Assembly (NCBI GenBank): GCA_002722155.1
Contig: PBKS01000001.1
Coordinates: forward strand, 91,644-155,643
Source: Chloroflexota bacterium
GTDB taxonomy: Bacteria; Chloroflexota; Dehalococcoidia; Lucifugimonadales; UBA826
Direction: 5' to 3'
DNA length: 64,000 nucleotides
In this document: piece after piece, positions 21,174-31,496 of the stretch
How positions within the stretch are numbered: the stretch's first letter is position 1
How the letters are laid out: each line of letters begins with the position of its first letter
Program-made: the position numbers and the translations under genes
Notes under the pieces: model-generated
Told to the model about the DNA's origin: nothing
Databases searched by the model: none
What the model saw: the letters and a program-made list of their open reading frames with translations, nothing else

Positions 21174-23291
21174 TCAAACGCTATCTTGTAGGAATTCCAA
21201 AATACGCCGCTCCATGTATACTCTATCCTCAATTCGACGTGGCATATGTCTTTCCTCTGGAAAAACTAGCAGGTCATAATGCTTACCAGCCCCATTAAGC
21301 GAATTTATTAGGCGTGCCGTATGCCTAAAATGGACATTCTCATCCACAAGGCCGTGAACCAGCAAAAGTTTCCCTTCAATTTCAGGCACATAGGACATAA
21401 CACTACTTTCTTTGTAGCCATTTAAATTCTCATCGGGCATCCCCATATATCTTTCCGTGTAATGAGTATCATAGCCATCCCAACTAGTAACTGGAGCCCC
21501 TGCGACTGCAGCCTTGAACAAATCCGGCCGCTTGGCTAAACACATTAAAGACATATACCCCCCATAGCTCCACCCATATACTCCTATTCTCTCTTCATCA
21601 ACAATCCCCTTCTCGATTAGGTAATTGAGTGCAAACGACTGATCTTCAACTTCAACTTTTCCCATTAAATTTTTGATTGGTGATTCAAATTTTGACCCTC
21701 TTCTAGAACTGCCTCTGTTATCAACTACCACTACCAAATATCCATTTTCCCTTAAATACTGGGCCCTTAGTGAGGCCGTCATCATCCATGAATTAGTAAC
21801 CAACTGAACATGTGGTCCCCCATATACACTAAGCACTGTGGGATATGGGGCTTTAAATTTATTCGGGTTTGGATAATATAAGGCACCTGAAAGTTCAGTG
21901 CCGTCTTTTAAAGTTAATTCAAAAAATTCCGGCGGTTCTAATTTATATCTATCGATTCGTTCGTCGGCAGGTTCATGTATTACCATTTCCACACCATAGT
22001 CGTCTTCTAATGACCGCAAAACAACTGTCGGAGGAGATGACAAAGAATTATAAACATTGACGAACAATTTAGACTTAACACTGATGGATACGTTATGGAT
22101 ACCACTTTCAGAGGTGACCTTCTCTAAACCTTCTCCTTTCATAGACATTTTATAGAGATGTCTTTCTCTGTAGCTGTCTTTAGTTCCTGTAAAAAAGATA
22201 GTCTCATTTACTTCATCTACGGATTCAATTGAGTCAACCTGCCATTCCCCTTCAGTTAACCTCAATAGGTCCCCTTCTCTAAAAAGATAAATATGATTGA
22301 AGCCTGTCTTTTCGCTGGCCCATAGGAATCCACCTGATGACAGGGGCTTCAACATATTATGTAGATTGATCCAGGTCTCTGAATCTTCCTGCAACACTGT
22401 TGTAAGGGTCATATCTTCTATTGAAAATCTACGGATTTTGAGATGCTGTTGGTCACGTGATTCGGTTTGGATTGCCAATGAATTATCGGGAAACCAATCC
22501 AATCTGGCTATGTATTCATCTTCAGTTGATTCCACCCAAATACAATCTTTTGAATCTACTTCTACAATCCCAACTCTAACACTAGGATTATCTTGTCCTG
22601 CAAAAGGGTATCGGTGAGATTCGCTCGCGTTAGATCCCACTGAATCAGAACCAACATGATTTATGAAAAACTCTGGAATATGTTTCTCAGTTACTTCCGT
22701 GAATGCCACATAATAACTGTCTGGAGACCACCAGTACCCAGTGCTCCTACCCATTTCTTCTTGAGCTATATAATCTGCCAAACCTCTTGTGGAATCACAT
22801 TCCCCTTCAGTCAATTTAAAAGAGGCTCTAGATTTAACTTCTATCAAATGAATGTCACCGTTCCTGACAAAGGAAACAAACTCTCCATTGGGTGAAGCTT
22901 TAACATCTAAACACGGATGATCTGAAGCAGGCATTAATAGCTCTGGAGCAGAAAAGGGATCATCCAGCCAATATATATTCCCTTGATATGGTATTAATAT
23001 ATTGGAATCCTTGGCCCAAAAATATTGGGAAATCCCGCCAGACATTTGACGCAATCTTTGCTTACGCAGCTGTTCTTCCAAAGTTTCTTTAGAAGACGAA
23101 TCGCCTAGGTTATCCGCAATCACAAATTCAGACCTATTAACTAAATCTAACCCATATAAAGCTTTATAACCTGATGTATCCGCTGACTTTAGATACGCCA
23201 GGTACTTTCCATCAGGGCTAAAGGAAAACCCGCTAGGGACATCAAGCCCTGGCAATGGAAATTTAGAAATTTCTTCAATAGGTATAGGCAT
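21174..23291 (-). CDS. S9B dipeptidyl peptidase IV family protein
   Basis: IAQEEM, YGGP, GWSYGG nucleophile, DENVH, ERH. Confidence 0.95.
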   Translation of the reverse strand: MPIPIEEISKFPLPGLDVPSGFSFSPDGKYLAYLKSADTSGYKALYGLDLVNRSEFVIADNLGDSSSKETLEEQLRKQRLRQMSGGISQYFWAKDSNILIPYQGNIYWLDDPFSAPELLMPASDHPCLDVKASPNGEFVSFVRNGDIHLIEVKSRASFKLTEGECDSTRGLADYIAQEEMGRSTGYWWSPDSYYVAFTEVTEKHIPEFFINHVGSDSVGSNASESHRYPFAGQDNPSVRVGIVEVDSKDCIWVESTEDEYIARLDWFPDNSLAIQTESRDQQHLKIRRFSIEDMTLTTVLQEDSETWINLHNMLKPLSSGGFLWASEKTGFNHIYLFREGDLLRLTEGEWQVDSIESVDEVNETIFFTGTKDSYRERHLYKMSMKGEGLEKVTSESGIHNVSISVKSKLFVNVYNSLSSPPTVVLRSLEDDYGVEMVIHEPADERIDRYKLEPPEFFELTLKDGTELSGALYYPNPNKFKAPYPTVLSVYGGPHVQLVTNSWMMTASLRAQYLRENGYLVVVVDNRGSSRRGSKFESPIKNLMGKVEVEDQSFALNYLIEKGIVDEERIGVYGWSYGGYMSLMCLAKRPDLFKAAVAGAPVTSWDGYDTHYTERYMGMPDENLNGYKESSVMSYVPEIEGKLLLVHGLVDENVHFRHTARLINSLNGAGKHYDLLVFPEERHMPRRIEDRVYMERRILEFLQDSV

Positions 23292-24628
23292 TAGCGTATT
23301 CGCTGAACTACCTTTCTTGCAGATTTGACCAAGCGGTTAACATGATTTTCATCAGAAAACACATTCAAGGCTCCTGCCGCTCCCGACTGCAACAAAACTC
23401 CCTCATTTAACATACCAACGAAAAAAGCACGTTTCATATCTGAATCAGCATTAACCACATCTCTGTAATTGCTTATGCTGTCCTCAGTGAAATGTATACC
23501 AAAAAGCGATCCAACCCCGGTCACCTGTGCATCCACTCCCAACTCATCAAATACAGCTCTAAGTTGATTTCTCAGTTTATCTCCTAAGTTGTTCATAGCA
23601 TAATAAACATCAGGCGTCAGAAAGTTCATGACCACTTCGCCTGCTCTCATCGTTACTGGATTGGCATTAAAAGTACCGGCATGCGCTATTTCGGCACCAC
23701 CATTCGTAGGATCAAATAAGTCCATTATGTCTCTGCGACCTCCAAAGGCTCCCACAGGCATACCGCCACCTATTATTTTGCCTAAAGCAGTCATATCGGG
23801 AACAACACCAAATAATTCCTGTGCCCCACCAGGCGCAACTCTGAAACTTTGAACTTCATCATAAATCAATACAATTCCTAGCTTCGCCGTAATTCCTCTG
23901 ACAAATTCCAAGTATTCTAAATTCGCCGGAGTGTATCCGAATGATGAGACTATCGGTTCCATAATCACACATGCAATTGTTTCTGAATTTTCTTCCACCA
24001 TCCTTTTTGTCTCTTCAATATCGTTATATGGTACGACTATCACATCCTTCAAAACGGAATCGGGTTGCTTAGAATACTCTGGTATGGCAGTGGTTTTATT
24101 GGGGGCTAAACTATTTTTACTCGGATATACACTAACTGCTACATATTCGTGTGATCCATGGTAGCCGCCTTCAATTTTTACGATTTTGTCTCTACCCGTA
24201 AATTGACGCGCAGCCCTGATAGCCATCAAGGTAGCTTCTGTACCAGAATTAGTGAAGCGTATGGTATCAACTGATGGTATACGATCCGTTAGTATTTTAG
24301 CCAAGTTTATCTGTGAATCGGTTGGTCCGCTAAATGCTACCCCTTTGTCTGCTTGATCCTTGATTACATCTGCCACATCAGCGTTTGCATGACCTAATAT
24401 TAGGCTCGTTGCATTAATCATAAAATCTAGATACTCATTGCCATCAACGTCGATAATATAATGACCATGCCCGCTTTCGATAAAATGAGGATAGGGCTCA
24501 AAATAAGCGGTCCCTCTTGAACTACCTCCAGGTAAAACCTTTTCTGCCTCTTTTTGCCTTTGGTAGGACCCCTGAGTCCTTGCCACATATTTGTCTATTT
24601 CTTTTTGGGCGATGGAAGACATGTTCAT
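23291..24628 (-). CDS. Class III PLP aminotransferase, GSA-aminomutase-like paralog
   Basis: FTNSGTEAT, GGYHG, DEVQS, LGKIIGGG, HAGTFNANP; lacks the HemL NSPVRAF motif and AGSG loop. Confidence 0.88.
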   Translation of the reverse strand: MNMSSIAQKEIDKYVARTQGSYQRQKEAEKVLPGGSSRGTAYFEPYPHFIESGHGHYIIDVDGNEYLDFMINATSLILGHANADVADVIKDQADKGVAFSGPTDSQINLAKILTDRIPSVDTIRFTNSGTEATLMAIRAARQFTGRDKIVKIEGGYHGSHEYVAVSVYPSKNSLAPNKTTAIPEYSKQPDSVLKDVIVVPYNDIEETKRMVEENSETIACVIMEPIVSSFGYTPANLEYLEFVRGITAKLGIVLIYDEVQSFRVAPGGAQELFGVVPDMTALGKIIGGGMPVGAFGGRRDIMDLFDPTNGGAEIAHAGTFNANPVTMRAGEVVMNFLTPDVYYAMNNLGDKLRNQLRAVFDELGVDAQVTGVGSLFGIHFTEDSISNYRDVVNADSDMKRAFFVGMLNEGVLLQSGAAGALNVFSDENHVNRLVKSARKVVQRIR

Positions 24629-24706: not shown

Positions 24707-25546
24707 CTATTTCTTCTTCAAAGTCGTCAAAATTTCATTGAGACTCCCAGATCGAAACCCGTTCATATCCATTGTTACGTATGAGTATCCAATTGATTTG
24801 AAATATTCTGTAATTTCGGTTCTGGTGGGATCGTCCAATAGTGACAAAAAATCTTTAGGTTCAATTTCTATACGGGCTACTGTGTCGTGATGCCTTACAC
24901 GCAGTTGTTTGAACCCTTTAGACCTCAGAAAATGTTCCGCCTTTGCAATCCTGGTGAGAGCTTCTACGGTCACCATAGTGCCATACGGTATGCGGGATGA
25001 CAAACAAGCCTGTGCAGGCTTATCCCAGGTTGGCAATCCCATTTCTTTAGATAAATCCCTTATATCTTGTTTCGTAAGATCCGCCTCCACTAAGGGACTT
25101 CTGACGCCATACTGCTTTGCAGCCTCAAGACCGGGTCTATAATCTCCCAGATCATCCACATTAGTCCCATTTGTAATTACTGCGTAGCCTCGTTGATCTG
25201 CAAATTTGATTAGATGAGAATACAACTCATCTTTACAAAAAAAACATCTATCCGGATTGTTTGCTTGATAGTCCTCTCTCTCCGTTTCTTTTGTTTCAAT
25301 AATTTCATAATGAATTTGCTGATCTGTAGCAAGAGCTATGGCATCTTCTAGTTCAGATGGAGCAAGGCTGGGTGAATTGGCAGTTACCGATAAAGCTTTA
25401 TCGCCTAAAACTTCATGAGCTATCGCTGCTAAAAAAGCACTGTCCACGCCGCCTGAATAAGCAACAATCACACTTCCCATATCATTTATGATATTTACAA
25501 GTTGCTGCCTTTTCTCCTCAACAGATTTTTCAGTTATCTGTACCAT
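24707..25546 (-). CDS. larE: LarE ATP-dependent sulfur insertase (NPN cofactor biosynthesis); start ATG 25546 or GTG 25558
   Basis: PP-loop AYSGGVDS, RCFFCK, DDLGDYRPG, WDKPAQACLSSRIPYG, RVRHH, GFRSGSLN. Confidence 0.93.
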   Translation of the reverse strand: MVQITEKSVEEKRQQLVNIINDMGSVIVAYSGGVDSAFLAAIAHEVLGDKALSVTANSPSLAPSELEDAIALATDQQIHYEIIETKETEREDYQANNPDRCFFCKDELYSHLIKFADQRGYAVITNGTNVDDLGDYRPGLEAAKQYGVRSPLVEADLTKQDIRDLSKEMGLPTWDKPAQACLSSRIPYGTMVTVEALTRIAKAEHFLRSKGFKQLRVRHHDTVARIEIEPKDFLSLLDDPTRTEITEYFKSIGYSYVTMDMNGFRSGSLNEILTTLKKK

Positions 25547-25570
25547 ACCAATCCTCACTTTACCTTAATG

Positions 25571-26446
25571 CTACTCAGCCATCATTGCTTCCACAATTGA
25601 CTTCATCTCACCTGAATAAAAATCATAAGACCTATTCTGATACTTTAGTATCTTCTGGGACTCAGTCGTATCGTACCAATCATTCCAACCTGGTTCTTCT
25701 CGGTATACTGCCATACCAACAGGAGCTCCCATAAAATTGAAGAAATCTTCAACATAATCTTTTCCGGTTAATCGCCAAGTTGAACCGCCAGCAATGTTAA
25801 ATATATTGCCTACCGCCTCAGGATTCTCCACCGAAGATTTTATAGCATCAGCCACATCATCTCTGTGGACCATTTCTACTCTTTGTGCAGAGGTAAAGGG
25901 CCACGGTTCAGGAGGTTCCAAAAAAGCCGGAACTGCAATACTTGCTATCCGTAGTATCACAAAATTTACGCCAGAACCGATGAGAATCTTTTCTCCTGCA
26001 ATTTTACTATCCGCGTATATGTCTATAGCATTTTGTGGTTGATTAATACTAATTGGGTCAGACTCGTTGGAGGTGTCCCCATATGTACTGATTGAAGAGG
26101 TAAAAACCAATGGGGCTTTCGAGGCCTGAGTGGTGAGAGCGTCAACTATATTTCTAGTGCCCTCCACATTTACTGCAAATGTTTTATCTCTATCACGTTC
26201 ACTGGCCGGGGGTAAAAGTGCCGCCAAATGGAGAATTCCTCCTACATTGTGGACAGCCTCACTTACCGATTCACTGTCAGTGATATCTCCCTTCACTACT
26301 TCCACATTTGGTTCCCCTTCCAACCCTGTGAAATCCATGAATGGCAGATCAAATATACGCACAGGTCTTCCCTCCGCCAGAAACATAGCAGCCAATTGTC
26401 TACCCACACTCCCTGCTCCGCCTGTTATCAATACTGGATTACTCAA
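25571..26446 (-). CDS. NAD-dependent epimerase/dehydratase (extended SDR)
   Basis: TGGAGSVG, HLAA, YADSK; 4-nt overlap with the upstream gene. Confidence 0.9.
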   Translation of the reverse strand: MSNPVLITGGAGSVGRQLAAMFLAEGRPVRIFDLPFMDFTGLEGEPNVEVVKGDITDSESVSEAVHNVGGILHLAALLPPASERDRDKTFAVNVEGTRNIVDALTTQASKAPLVFTSSISTYGDTSNESDPISINQPQNAIDIYADSKIAGEKILIGSGVNFVILRIASIAVPAFLEPPEPWPFTSAQRVEMVHRDDVADAIKSSVENPEAVGNIFNIAGGSTWRLTGKDYVEDFFNFMGAPVGMAVYREEPGWNDWYDTTESQKILKYQNRSYDFYSGEMKSIVEAMMAE

Positions 26447-26766
26447 GTTAAGGTCGTTCCTTTCATACCGGCTTTTTCGATCAAATTTTGAGAGCTCGCT
26501 ATTAAAGTTTCCACAGCGGCCTTCATCCCATCCCAGTCATTAGCATTTTTTAGTTCCAGGGCTAATGCGGCATCTCTCATAGCTGTGCGCGTAACTGGAA
26601 CACTTGGCATTGTTTTAAAGAAAAATGTCTCACTCACCTCTTCAAATTTCTCTACTATCTCTACAACCGAATTTTCCCAATCTTGATTTTGCGTACCAAG
26701 GCCATCTGCGATAGATTTACAAGTAGATATTGTCTCATCGAGCATTTCTTGTCCTGATTGCGGCAT
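26443..26766 (-). CDS. Hypothetical all-helical protein, 107 aa
   Basis: GGAGG RBS, translational coupling to the epimerase, amphipathic helical pattern. Confidence 0.75.
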   Translation of the reverse strand: MPQSGQEMLDETISTCKSIADGLGTQNQDWENSVVEIVEKFEEVSETFFFKTMPSVPVTRTAMRDAALALELKNANDWDGMKAAVETLIASSQNLIEKAGMKGTTLT

Positions 26767-26805
26767 TTACAGAATTCCTCCCAATTATGATTTTGGCTAA
26801 AAATT

Positions 26806-26836
26806 AAAGGGCGGCCACTAAGTGGTCGCCCTTTTT
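26806..26836. terminator. GC hairpin (terminator or mRNA stabiliser) after the DUF362 gene
   Basis: AAAGGGCGGCCAC-TAA-GTGGTCGCCCTTT with T-rich tails on both strands. Confidence 0.7.
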
Positions 26837-26866
26837 GTGTCCAATTCCTAAAGGCAGCGAACTACC

Positions 26867-28279
26867 CTAATCGGCGCCATCAGCATGAACTGACTCACCT
26901 ACTTCCGTTATTTCTGGCGAATCTTCATAGTGATGTTTCACCTTATCTAGATCAACAACATCCAACCTGTTGAAGCCTTTACCATCATACTTGTCGTATG
27001 GAAAGGGTTGGAATTTCTCGAATCTTTCTCCGAACCTTTGCCTGCTTGGCCTGGTATCGTAAGGGAACCTGAAACGTTCTGGGCTATCAGGCTCACATTC
27101 AATTAATTCATATTCTCTACTACCAAGACCTATTTCATGACCCGTATTAATACTAGTAACTTCACTTTGACCATGGAATGTTGCAGCCGCCGCCTCAAAT
27201 TTTTTATCTCCTGCATGATGTGCTTCCATCATTTCAGCAGCAGACCCTTTTATACCCTCGGCTTCCCTAGCCTTGTCAACACAGGCCATATCTATGGCTA
27301 CTGGATCCTTACTGGCGAAAACTCCGAGATGGGGAACTATAGGCACATCCGCGTGATTTGCGCAATCACAGCGAGGCGAAACGTCCAACGCCATGTTAAT
27401 ATACCCCACCTTGTCTCTACCCACTGCTTTCTCCACACCTAAGCAGGCGTCAGCAATAGCTGCATCAACAGCATCAAACTGAACAGGAGGAATATCCATC
27501 AATCCCCGCGGTCCCATTACGCCGAAACAGCCTAAGCAATTTGCGCACTTATCCCCATCCCATTCAAGCTCATCTTTTTCGTTTATGTGGTAAAGGTTAA
27601 AGGGACAGCAATCTTCCAATATTTCCCAATCTGGAGTGTTCGCCTTGCCTTTGAAGTTTTCCGGATGGAAAACACCGGCTGCTCCTAACCCGTAGGTTGG
27701 ATGACCTCCCATGTGAACATTGAATTTGCCTCGTTTGGATTGTGCTCCAATACCCAAATTCTTTAGTGCTCCACCAATCACACCCATGCTGTGACCTTTG
27801 AAGTGAGTTAACGCGATAAGCGCGTCTGCTGCTGCAATTGCTTGGGCAACATAAGCCTCTTTGAGAATGTATCCCTCTGGAATATCAACTACAAAATCGC
27901 TAGTACCAATAAATCCATCGGCACATATGAACGGGCAGCCTAAAGTTGCAGAGCTATATCCGTTCCTTTCTGCTGTGAGCAATATATCTATTTCAGAAGT
28001 CCTCGAACCCCATGGAGAGTATGAGGATGTCGTTGTGTCACAGACAAACGGGCGACCTCCTAACTCTTTTATTCTATCAGCCAATTGACGAGCATAAAGA
28101 GGCCTCAAGTATGCAGAGTTATTCCATTCTCCGCAGTGTACTTTTATGGCAACAATATCATTCGGCTTTACAATCTCATCTAAACCTGCGGCATCAAAAA
28201 CGGTGATCATTTTCGCCGCCAATGCCGTTTCCGTAGACTCTGAATGGGCATCCATGTAATAAACTGTTGAGTCAGACAT
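26867..28279 (-). CDS. DUF362 domain iron-sulfur protein with LarA-like motif (ORF-track start GTG 28291)
   Basis: VAIKVHCGE, HFKGH...GGALKNLG, CP + CxxCxxC, CDC, ASKDPVAID; GGAGG RBS before ATG 28279. Confidence 0.9.
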   Translation of the reverse strand: MSDSTVYYMDAHSESTETALAAKMITVFDAAGLDEIVKPNDIVAIKVHCGEWNNSAYLRPLYARQLADRIKELGGRPFVCDTTTSSYSPWGSRTSEIDILLTAERNGYSSATLGCPFICADGFIGTSDFVVDIPEGYILKEAYVAQAIAAADALIALTHFKGHSMGVIGGALKNLGIGAQSKRGKFNVHMGGHPTYGLGAAGVFHPENFKGKANTPDWEILEDCCPFNLYHINEKDELEWDGDKCANCLGCFGVMGPRGLMDIPPVQFDAVDAAIADACLGVEKAVGRDKVGYINMALDVSPRCDCANHADVPIVPHLGVFASKDPVAIDMACVDKAREAEGIKGSAAEMMEAHHAGDKKFEAAAATFHGQSEVTSINTGHEIGLGSREYELIECEPDSPERFRFPYDTRPSRQRFGERFEKFQPFPYDKYDGKGFNRLDVVDLDKVKHHYEDSPEITEVGESVHADGAD

Positions 28280-28343
28280 ATTTCCCTCCACTCCTTAATT
28301 TGAGCAAATAGGTACAATTTCCATAGCTAATCATGTGCTGCTG

Positions 28344-28372: not shown

Positions 28373-28545
28373 TAATTTAACAAACTTTCCAATCGATACT
28401 AAAATACGATATATAAAGGGGATAAAGCTGACATAAATTTTATCCATACCTTGGAGCGAAATAATACATGCGGATAATTCTGCTGCACCGATACTCCTGA
28501 AATTTGTATCATGACATTACAACAATAGAAGTTAAAGGAAACAAA

Positions 28546-29382
28546 TTGAAAGTCACAGACAGAATAACCAAAATAGTCGTAGGTGGAAATGAGCCAGACC
28601 CCTTCAAATACGGCGGGGTATATCCCCCAAATGTTTTTCTAGTAAATGGGAAAAACAAGTCAGTCTATATAGACACAGCGCATGGCAAACCAGAAGAAAT
28701 CCAAAAGCATCTTTCAATTTGGGAATCACAAGGGGAACCGGAAATAGCCGGAATAATATTGACCCACAGACACAGTGACCACATTGGTGGGGCCCAAGAA
28801 CTGAGTAAGCGAATGGAAGCGCCAGTAATATCTACTTCAGTAGAAAAAATTGCTATCGAAAAAGAATCTTCTGCTAAAGTCAGCATAACTCCTACCGACG
28901 GAGAAAAATTAGATTTAGGAGAAACCACATTGGAATTTGTTCATACCCCTGGGCACACAATGGGCAGCCTGTGTATTTATCTAGAAGAAGACAAAGTCCT
29001 TTTCACCGGAGATAATATTTTAGGTTTGGGAACTACAGTTATTTCTCCTGATGAGGGGAATATGACCTCATACATCAAATCATTACAAAAAATGTTGGAT
29101 TATGACATCGAGAAAATATGCCCTGGCCACGGACCGGAAATAGAAACTCCTATAGAAAAGATACATGAGTTAATTGAGCATAGACATCAGCGCGAAGCAC
29201 AAATGTTAGAGTTGATTACCTCTGGAAAGGATTCTATGGACGATATTTTCAATACTATATATAAAGATATACATCCAGGTCTTCATAATACAGCGAGAAG
29301 GCAGATACAAGCTCATATAAATAAACTGATAGAGGAGAAAAGAATTGAACAAACCGGTAACATTTACGGAATAGTTCAGTAA
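28546..29382 (+). CDS. MBL-fold metallo-hydrolase with C-terminal winged helix (LACTB2-like); start TTG 28546 or 28504
   Basis: THRHSDHIGG, TPGHT, FTGD, PGHG. Confidence 0.9.
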   Translation: MKVTDRITKIVVGGNEPDPFKYGGVYPPNVFLVNGKNKSVYIDTAHGKPEEIQKHLSIWESQGEPEIAGIILTHRHSDHIGGAQELSKRMEAPVISTSVEKIAIEKESSAKVSITPTDGEKLDLGETTLEFVHTPGHTMGSLCIYLEEDKVLFTGDNILGLGTTVISPDEGNMTSYIKSLQKMLDYDIEKICPGHGPEIETPIEKIHELIEHRHQREAQMLELITSGKDSMDDIFNTIYKDIHPGLHNTARRQIQAHINKLIEEKRIEQTGNIYGIVQ

Positions 29383-29396
29383 ATCGGAGACTCTCA

Positions 29397-30710
29397 ATGA
29401 ATTTCTCAAATATCGACGTTTTTCCTATGGGCACAACAGTCAACTCACAAGGAGTTCTTGAAATAGGGGGTTGTGACGTAGTTTCATTATCTGAAACCTA
29501 TGGAACTCCATTGTACGTTTATGATGAGAACACCATAAGGACTATGGCACGTACTTTTGTGGGTGAATTTACATCCCGGTATGCAAATACTTCTGTCGCT
29601 TACGCATCTAAAGCCTTTCTTAATTTAGCTATGGCTAAAATAGCCTCTGAGGAAAAACTTTCACTTGACGTTGTTTCGGGTGGAGAAGTAGCAGTAGCAC
29701 ATGCTGCAGGATTTCCCTGCAATAAAATGTATTTCCATGGAAATAACAAAACCCCACAAGAACTTTCTGAAGCCATCGATTTGGGGGTTGGAACTATAGT
29801 TGTAGATGGCTTCCAAGAACTCGACCTACTGAATTCAATAGCCAAATCTAAGAACACCACTCAAGGAATTATGTTAAGGCTGTCTCCTTCTGTTGATGCT
29901 CATACACATGCTCATACCACAACAGGAATATTGGACGTAAAGTTTGGATTCTCCATAGAAACTGGGGAAAGCACTCTTGCCATTAGGCAGGCCATCGATT
30001 CCAGTAATCTTGACCTCCAAGGAATACACTTTCATCTCGGGTCCCCAATTTTTGAATTGGAGCCTTACTCAACAGCAATAGACACGGTGCTCGATTATTT
30101 GAAGCCATTTTTTAGTCAAGGTTTAAAATTAAGAAAATTCAGTCCAGGTGGTGGATTTGCAATTGGATACCTTCAACAGCAGCTACCCCCATCAATAGCT
30201 GGTTATGCTGACGTAATCACCTCCATGTTAAAAAACAAATGTGAGGATTTAGGAATTGAATACCCTGAATTGATCATTGAACCAGGAAGATCCATAGTAG
30301 GAAGAGCGGGAGTCGCAATCTATACAGTAGGTGTGACCAAAAACATCCCGAACGTCCGAACTTACGTATCTCTGGACGGGGGTATGGGAGACAACATAAG
30401 GCCAGCTTTGTACGACGCGCAATATGAAGCTGTGGCCGCAAATAGAATGTCTGGAGGAGATCTCACTACTGTTACACTAGCCGGTAAATACTGTGAGACA
30501 GGCGACATCTTAGTGAAAGACATAGCACTCCCCAGTTTAGATTCGGGAGACATAGTGGCCATACCAGCATCTGGTGCCTATTGCATCGCGATGTCCAGCA
30601 ATTACAACATGAATCCACGTCCCGAAATTGTAATGGTCTCTCAAGGAACAGCTCGAGTGATTAGAAAAAGAGAAACTTATAAAGATTTAATGGCTCTAGA
30701 TCTACCGTAG
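29397..30710 (+). CDS. lysA: Diaminopimelate decarboxylase
   Basis: YGTPLYVYD, YASKAF, HLGS, EPGRS, KYCETGD, GAY..MSSNYN. Confidence 0.96.
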   Translation: MNFSNIDVFPMGTTVNSQGVLEIGGCDVVSLSETYGTPLYVYDENTIRTMARTFVGEFTSRYANTSVAYASKAFLNLAMAKIASEEKLSLDVVSGGEVAVAHAAGFPCNKMYFHGNNKTPQELSEAIDLGVGTIVVDGFQELDLLNSIAKSKNTTQGIMLRLSPSVDAHTHAHTTTGILDVKFGFSIETGESTLAIRQAIDSSNLDLQGIHFHLGSPIFELEPYSTAIDTVLDYLKPFFSQGLKLRKFSPGGGFAIGYLQQQLPPSIAGYADVITSMLKNKCEDLGIEYPELIIEPGRSIVGRAGVAIYTVGVTKNIPNVRTYVSLDGGMGDNIRPALYDAQYEAVAANRMSGGDLTTVTLAGKYCETGDILVKDIALPSLDSGDIVAIPASGAYCIAMSSNYNMNPRPEIVMVSQGTARVIRKRETYKDLMALDLP

Positions 30711-30719
30711 TCAGTTAAC

Positions 30720-31496
30720 GTGGACCAAAACATAGTAAAACCCTCAATAAAGCCTGTTTTTGTCTACGGTATAGCTTCCATAAATATATTTATTTGGATA
30801 ATTATGGAAATCTATGGAGGGAGTACCAACCCATCCAATCTGCGCAGATTCGGGGCGATTGATTCTTATTTAATTTGGTCGGGGGAATATTGGAGACTCG
30901 CCACATCAATTTTCCTTCATATCGGGGCTACTCACCTCGCAATAAATTCCATAAGCCTTGTAATTATGGGGGGCCTAGCAGAACGTTTGTATGGACACCG
31001 CAATTTCATTTTTATTTTTCTTATTACTGGGCTTCTAGGTAGTTCCGTCAGCTATTTGAATATCGGAAACGGAATTGTGGGTGCTGGAGCTAGTGGTGCA
31101 ATATTTGGATGCCTAGGAAGCCTAGTCTCTTATTTTTATGTTCGAAGGAACAGTCTCGGGAAGTCAGGAAAACAAACCCTAAACGGATTGATAATTTTAG
31201 CCCTCGCTAACCTTGCTTTCGGATTTGTTATACCCGCCGTCGATAATTGGGCACACATTGGAGGACTTATTTCAGGCTTGGCCTCGGGATATTTTTTGAT
31301 TTCCTATACTAACGGGCAGCACAGATTTATAACTAATTCTGGAACTATACAGTCAATCTCCGTGCTTATTGTCGGTCTCTCAATACTTACTGCTTTGCTA
31401 GCCATAGGCCATGTAAATTACGACCCGGAAAATATTTTCCCGTTTTCTAAGCAAACAATTTTGAAGGACTTTCTATCAAGCGTTGCAATCTTCTAA
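30720..31496 (+). CDS. Rhomboid intramembrane serine protease
   Basis: EYWRL, HLAIN, GASGA, AHIGG. Confidence 0.92.
   Translation: MDQNIVKPSIKPVFVYGIASINIFIWIIMEIYGGSTNPSNLRRFGAIDSYLIWSGEYWRLATSIFLHIGATHLAINSISLVIMGGLAERLYGHRNFIFIFLITGLLGSSVSYLNIGNGIVGAGASGAIFGCLGSLVSYFYVRRNSLGKSGKQTLNGLIILALANLAFGFVIPAVDNWAHIGGLISGLASGYFLISYTNGQHRFITNSGTIQSISVLIVGLSILTALLAIGHVNYDPENIFPFSKQTILKDFLSSVAIF

Follow-up and report, generated by a model that had tools for sequence, protein, structure and literature searches.

In a 64,000-nucleotide window from a Chloroflexota bacterium of the class Dehalococcoidia (assembly GCA_002722155.1, contig PBKS01000001.1, positions 91,644 to 155,643), a DUF362 gene lies on the reverse strand together with larE, which encodes the sulfur insertase for nickel-pincer nucleotide (NPN), the cofactor of the lactate racemase LarA. 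We propose the DUF362 protein as a candidate NPN enzyme, unpublished as far as the literature searched is concerned. From sequence and predicted fold, it is quite probable that the protein binds NPN in some manner, and we give a probability of roughly 0.55 to the fuller proposal that it is an NPN-tethering, iron-sulfur (Fe-S)-coupled dehydrogenase or reductase. The cofactor is likely held as in LarA, and the chemistry is probably different; the protein itself is not a member of the LarA family.

The initial annotation had equated His167, Lys177 and His193 of the DUF362 protein with the LarA triad. An hhalign comparison with a 20-sequence LarA profile bears this out, as the three residues fall on His174, Lys184 and His200 of LarA in a gap-free block (pairwise E 7.9e-5, with a probability of only 61%). 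The LarA numbering, including that of His108, was recounted on the Lactobacillus plantarum chain of 6C1W and is correct, and translation agrees with the first codon bases given for the triad (27793, 27763 and 27715). The complete triad is present in 130 of 137 DUF362 homologues at 28-90% identity and in all 80 diverse loci of the same subtype, these being the best 80 of 597 loci from 2 of the 64 parts of the collection. The bare spacing H-x9-K-x15-H occurs in 10 of the 813 open frames of at least 300 aa in the source genome; it is therefore weak evidence, and we rejected it as proof in itself. Requiring GG before the Lys leaves two frames, the DUF362 protein and the genome's own LarA. This GG had been described as shared with LarA; it is present but shifted by one position (GG-A-L-K versus GG-x-K).

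An AlphaFold2 model built from 137 sequences (predicted local distance difference test, pLDDT, 95) predicts that the DUF362 protein shares the fold of the NPN-binding N-terminal domain of LarA. All ten Foldseek matches at E<=0.001 were LarA-family structures. VIA-align returned 12 LarA-family entries with Z scores of 14.4-18.1 and root-mean-square deviations (rmsd) of 3.1-3.9 Å over 214-232 residues, whereas the next fold reached a Z of only 5.7. The superposition on LarA that had been suggested as a check thus supports the proposal as far as the fold is concerned. The alignment spans mostly residues 33-269 of LarA, the region described as its NPN-binding domain (PMC11851776). Searching the PDB with the protein sequence gave no match, and the best 60 matches to the DUF362 profile were ferredoxin-type segments; no solved DUF362 (PF04015) member was found in these searches, nor a characterised one in the literature searched.

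The protein has the N-terminal NPN-binding fold, the His-x9-Lys-x15-His motif and the link to lar genes in common with the LarA superfamily (DUF2088, Lar_N PF09861; 5HUQ, 6C1W, 9EIA, 6D6Z). It differs in its low sequence identity (10-16%), in having no Lar_N match at E<=0.01, and in its inserted Fe-S segment and C-D-C motif. By Pfam it has neither the C-terminal substrate-recognition domain of LarA, about 220 residues being alignable, nor the TIM-barrel aldo-keto reductase (AKR) domain PF00248, its fold being LarA-like instead. His108 of LarA aligns to Ser96, where no His is conserved, and only 35/137 DUF362 homologues have any His within residues 84-99. Because the second base and the substrate domain are lost, LarA-type racemisation is argued against. 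Together with the Fe-S motif, the missing His108 equivalent is consistent with the redox rather than racemase role suggested by the initial annotation.

The ferredoxin-like insert starts directly after His193. The ferredoxin-type cluster named by the initial annotation holds for one complete predicted [4Fe-4S] motif, but the second of two motifs has been lost: its four Cys are gone, and Phe213, Leu225 and Met259 occupy Cys columns of the family. Two CxxCxxC motifs are found in 82 of the 137 homologues, and the clade of the window protein keeps one set. Across the family, the redox wiring takes the form either of internal ferredoxin motifs or of a twin-arginine translocation (Tat) signal with an adjoining membrane polyferredoxin (26 loci), the latter being the partner of the cluster-free Tat-type forms.

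In the preferred mechanism, Lys177 would tether NPN, His193 would ligate nickel and His167 would serve as base. By analogy with LarA and NphT chemistry, an alcohol, hydroxyacid or hemiacetal would give up a hydride from C-H to C4 of the pincer. The reduced pincer would then be re-oxidised in one-electron steps via nickel and the cluster rather than by hydride return; electrons would travel between the cofactor and an external acceptor or donor by way of the single predicted [4Fe-4S] cluster. The outcome would be net oxidation of the substrate, or its reduction if run backwards, and the short-chain dehydrogenase/reductase (SDR) encoded in the same operon may act on the same metabolite. If true, coupling NPN to Fe-S clusters in this way would take the cofactor beyond the redox-neutral shuffling of hydride and into net electron transfer.

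Alternatively, the protein could bind NPN and remain redox-neutral, as an epimerase, racemase or dismutase whose cluster is structural, sensing or substrate-binding. All covalent NPN enzymes characterised in the literature covered are redox-neutral (PMC13524815, PMC11851776), some LarA homologues have a single catalytic His (PMC12611868), the SDR of the operon is of the epimerase type, and one cluster has been lost in this clade. We consider this explanation unlikely, since the His108 position shows no conserved His, the loss of one ligand set is clean and has left the other complete, and Tat forms that lack a cluster have a membrane polyferredoxin as partner.

Table 1. Features of the DUF362 locus, in window coordinates.
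Feature	Position	Strand	Remarks
DUF362 gene	26867..28291	-	474 aa from GTG; predicted LarA-like N-terminal (cofactor-binding) domain
DUF362 protein, additional segments			inserted ferredoxin-like segment (~residues 194-268) and clade-specific C-terminal tail
His167	27791..27793	-	aligned to catalytic His174 of LarA; 131/137 homologues
Lys177	27761..27763	-	aligned to Lys184 of LarA (thioamide tether); 136/137 homologues
His193	27713..27715	-	aligned to His200 of LarA (Ni ligand); 136/137 homologues
C229-P and C249-x2-C252-x2-C255	27527..27607	-	one complete predicted [4Fe-4S] ligand set
C308-D309-C310	27362..27370	-	conserved subfamily motif; 136, 134 and 136 of 137 homologues
orf107	26443..26766	-	always behind the DUF362 gene of this clade; no Pfam family
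NAD-dependent epimerase/dehydratase-type SDR	25571..26446	-	4-base overlap with orf107
larE (NPN sulfur insertase)	24707..25558	-	TIGR00268 344 bits, cut-off 150; 12 bases behind SDR gene

As the initial annotation had stated, larE lies on the same strand, three genes downstream of the DUF362 gene, and the TIGR00268 score confirms its identity (Table 1). The genes DUF362-orf107-SDR-larE are separated by 100, -4 and 12 bases. DUF362 proteins of this kind were found in 20 of 30 relatives, including 18/18 within the family, and the gene order is kept in 19 of these 20 carriers, from three families, the twentieth being cut by a contig end; the proposed linkage to larE is therefore conserved.

The absence of larA from the window was likewise borne out, the sole LarA match of the source genome being on contig C6. 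Besides this canonical larA, the genome (86% complete) contains larB, larE, a second DUF362 gene and an AKR gene similar to that of the NPN enzyme NphT (contig C9). The predicted product of the latter gene (95267-96031) matches NphT (9YEB) at E 2.7e-83 and keeps its His and Lys. A genome search for larA, larB and larC had been proposed; larA and larB are present, but larC was not found in this 86% complete assembly. Among family relatives larC is present in 17/18, and in eight of them it shares a contig with larA, ~6 kb downstream of it. The corresponding position lies beyond the end of C6; the source genome's larC thus probably falls in the contig gap just past that end. A Lar_N match was obtained in 15/15 relatives tested. 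With a canonical LarA and an NphT-like AKR both encoded in the genome, we rejected the idea that larE is an orphan in need of a DUF362 client.

The distribution of DUF362 and lar genes across genomes was analysed in three sets. For larC in diverse genomes we used the first 50 genomes of the 80 subtype loci, the other 30 containing a larger share that is gut-derived: 41 have larC, 23 have LarA, 20 have larC without LarA, and 3 of the 9 larC-negative genomes have larE. The second set is a phylum sample of 301 genomes around a member of Thermoleophilia (G054), which we take to represent Actinomycetota, and the third an order sample of 151 genomes around a member of Rikenellaceae (G062), presumably Bacteroidales. 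In both, every PF04015 subtype matched at E<=1e-8 was counted, as were the centre genomes, and related genomes are not independent of one another. In the phylum sample larC is present in 106 of 113 DUF362 carriers versus 103 of 188 other genomes, the 103 including eight unpublished genomes. In the order sample DUF362 occurs in 22 of 24 larC genomes versus 54 of the remaining 127. The distance from larC to a DUF362 gene is at most 2.5 kb in at least 12 of these 24, and where larC is found without LarA, 13 of 15 genomes carry DUF362. The co-occurrence expected by the initial annotation is thus found in part: DUF362 tracks larC in all three sets, but many carriers have neither larC nor larE. At three loci (L253-L255), larC-(larE)-larB and then a WbqC-family gene stand back to back with a Tat-type DUF362 gene and a membrane polyferredoxin gene; larE was not matched in L254 and L255.

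Besides the modest probability of the profile alignment (61%), several observations weigh against an NPN-dependent DUF362 enzyme. Foremost, 54 of 76 DUF362 carriers in the order sample are without larC, and all 54 are without larE; larB was absent from 5/5 genomes of this order tested, four of them DUF362 carriers. Subtype loci in genomes without lar genes nevertheless keep the triad (14/14), and LarA, in contrast to DUF362, is accompanied by larC in 9/10 cases in the order sample. A neighbouring larB or larE, at up to 10 kb, was seen at only 3/80 subtype loci, and kinship inflates all co-occurrence counts. LarA residues D72 and R75 have no confident equivalent in the DUF362 protein, and the literature covered offers no precedent for NPN passing single electrons to an Fe-S cluster. 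In the source genome, larC was not found and larE has other likely clients. We accordingly rejected the notion that DUF362 always needs larBCE in the same genome, given the 54/76 Bacteroidales carriers without larC and larE.

These data raise the question whether DUF362 merely shares ancestry with LarA, its His/Lys/His site serving another cofactor or metal independently of larBCE, with larE a neighbour by history. The lar-less carriers of the order sample, whose triad is intact where read, and the weak neighbourhood link fit this explanation, and the further invariant residues of DUF362 proteins (K50, H52, H163, K189 and C308/C310) could build a different site. It is at odds with larC being strongly enriched in the phylum and order samples and with larC-larE-larB standing back to back with DUF362. 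Moreover, lar-less genomes often carry a gene resembling the S component of energy-coupling factor (ECF) transporters in the lar slot, and one such genome (G132) has such a gene behind an NphT-like AKR with His and Lys kept. On balance, we regard the use of another cofactor as fairly unlikely.

In the order sample, two small membrane families of ~170 aa (s1, loci L262-L277; s2, loci L280-L298) fill the larC-larE-larB slot beside Tat-type DUF362 genes. For s1, for which no informative Pfam or PDB sequence match was obtained, the top nine VIA rows are ECF S components (Z 9.7-11.3, rmsd 3.5-4.9 Å, middling values for a helical protein), and the Foldseek match is weak (best E 0.43); s2 is named an ECF S component by Atlas (0.98). 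Each family is present in 17 genomes, 34 together: none of the 24 larC genomes, 27 of the 54 with DUF362 and no larC, and 7 of the 73 with neither. A listed DUF362 match is adjoined by 12 s1 and 6 s2 genes. In G132, which is without larB, larC and larE, a gene for a Tat-signal AKR (L275:505-1998) is directly followed by an s1 gene; the best solved match of this AKR is NphT (9YEB, E 9e-59), with His144 and Lys200 kept. Because S-component-like genes occur in 27/54 DUF362 carriers without larC and in 0/24 larC genomes, this make-or-import pattern suggests that NPN, or a precursor of it, may be salvaged. The same count leaves 27 lar-less carriers unexplained, which is a further point against NPN dependence. 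In the part of the s2 neighbourhoods covered by the Pfam scan, s2 genes stand beside a small phosphoribosyltransferase (L280-L283, L285, L296), beside DUF1893 and an Fe-S-bearing AKR (L284, L286, L287, L289, L295), or beside a TonB-dependent receptor (L288, L291-L293).

About 15% of surveyed genomes, most cyanobacteria included, have larBCE without larA, the client being an open question (PMC11796402), and the NPN client of Haloferax was also left open (PMC8305020). We tentatively raise the possibility, which we regard as rather doubtful, that DUF362 is the main missing client of this orphan pathway, converting hydride into single electrons via Fe-S, and that lar-less Bacteroidales take up the cofactor, or its base, as a shared "vitamin" through dedicated S components of the ECF type, in many cases alongside a phosphoribosyltransferase or TonB receptor. 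If true, such cofactor import would add a new kind to the vitamin salvage routes of microbes.

The same surroundings could be read as those of an accessory to NPN metabolism, serving as a carrier or in loading, repair or salvage, rather than of a metabolic enzyme. The gene is co-directional with larE here and adjoins larB or larE at two other loci (L095, L096), its relatives have S components, phosphoribosyltransferases and TonB receptors as neighbours, and the substrate-recognising domain of LarA is absent. An accessory role is quite unlikely, since active LarA in Escherichia coli needs only larBCE (PMC11796402), 103 of 209 larC genomes in the phylum sample are without DUF362, and up to 10 paralogues in one genome fit diverse enzymes better.

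Within the preferred reading of an Fe-S-coupled NPN enzyme, two known systems are closest after canonical LarA. The single-His LarA homologues (9Q3K, 9Q3J; PMC12611868) also combine Lys-tethered NPN with one catalytic His, and a function beyond plain racemisation has been proposed for them; they have lost the His174 equivalent, keep His108 and are without an Fe-S motif, the DUF362 protein being their opposite with respect to the His. NphT (9YEB; PMC13524815) is likewise a non-LarA NPN client with a Lys tether and a His ligand that was found via lar context, and net hydride transfer between molecules by NPN is established for it; it differs in being a TIM-barrel without Fe-S and redox-neutral overall. 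Other DUF362 proteins of the "uncharacterized Fe-S center protein" subtype share the conserved motifs of the window protein, whose clade differs in its one cluster motif, its C-terminal tail and orf107. We take this subtype to correspond to COG2768.

Desguin 2025, on ornithine cyclodeaminase, reportedly mined larE neighbourhoods and could already list DUF362. The initial annotation had allowed that a DUF362-NPN link might be on record; kinship with LarA is known, DUF362 and DUF2088 sharing Pfam clan CL0471 and DUF362 having served as outgroup only (PMC11770544), but no NPN claim was found in the literature searched, which lay outside Desguin 2025 and the main supplement of PMC13524815. "DUF" and PF04015 are absent from the main text and 8/12 supplement files of PMC13524815. 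Searches for nickel-pincer with an ECF S component, for larBCE lacking larA and for SAR202 lactate racemase gave no literature.

No Pfam or NCBIfam family was found for orf107, and its Atlas matches reach only 0.78. Distant homologues (26-30% identity) follow DUF362 in other Dehalococcoidia and in Entotheonella, and the protein may be a small partner subunit of the DUF362 protein. Structure prediction lends weak support to such a complex, scoring 0.50 versus 0.00 for the best control, with at least 60% of contacts agreeing between runs and a partner pLDDT of at least 87. The mark applied is passed by 116/157 solved and 2/215 mismatched pairs, and at <=0.60 by 18 solved pairs and both mismatches. 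A scan for promoters and terminators was uninformative (12 promoter-like sites versus 13.8 expected, no terminators). Downstream of larE lie genes for a class III aminotransferase and a DPP-IV-like peptidase (window 21174-24628), and upstream, divergently, those for a metallo-beta-lactamase-fold protein, a lysA-like decarboxylase and a rhomboid protein (28504-31496); these surroundings are partly syntenic in relatives.

The 474-aa frame matches PF04015 at E 1.3e-42 (146.6 bits versus a curated Pfam cut-off of 24). By their labels, its nearest homologues come from SAR202-like Chloroflexota. An ATG at codon 5 (28279) is preceded by GGAGGG and may be the real start, in which case the residue numbers given here move by 4. 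DUF362 is widespread, with ~20,000 stretches estimated for the subtype of the window protein alone, and also occurs in the control genomes of S. elongatus, T. maritima and M. acetivorans. The second DUF362 protein of the source genome (contig C5, 47887-48498; 376 aa) is without CxxCxxC and shows the pattern H-x9-K-x11-H.

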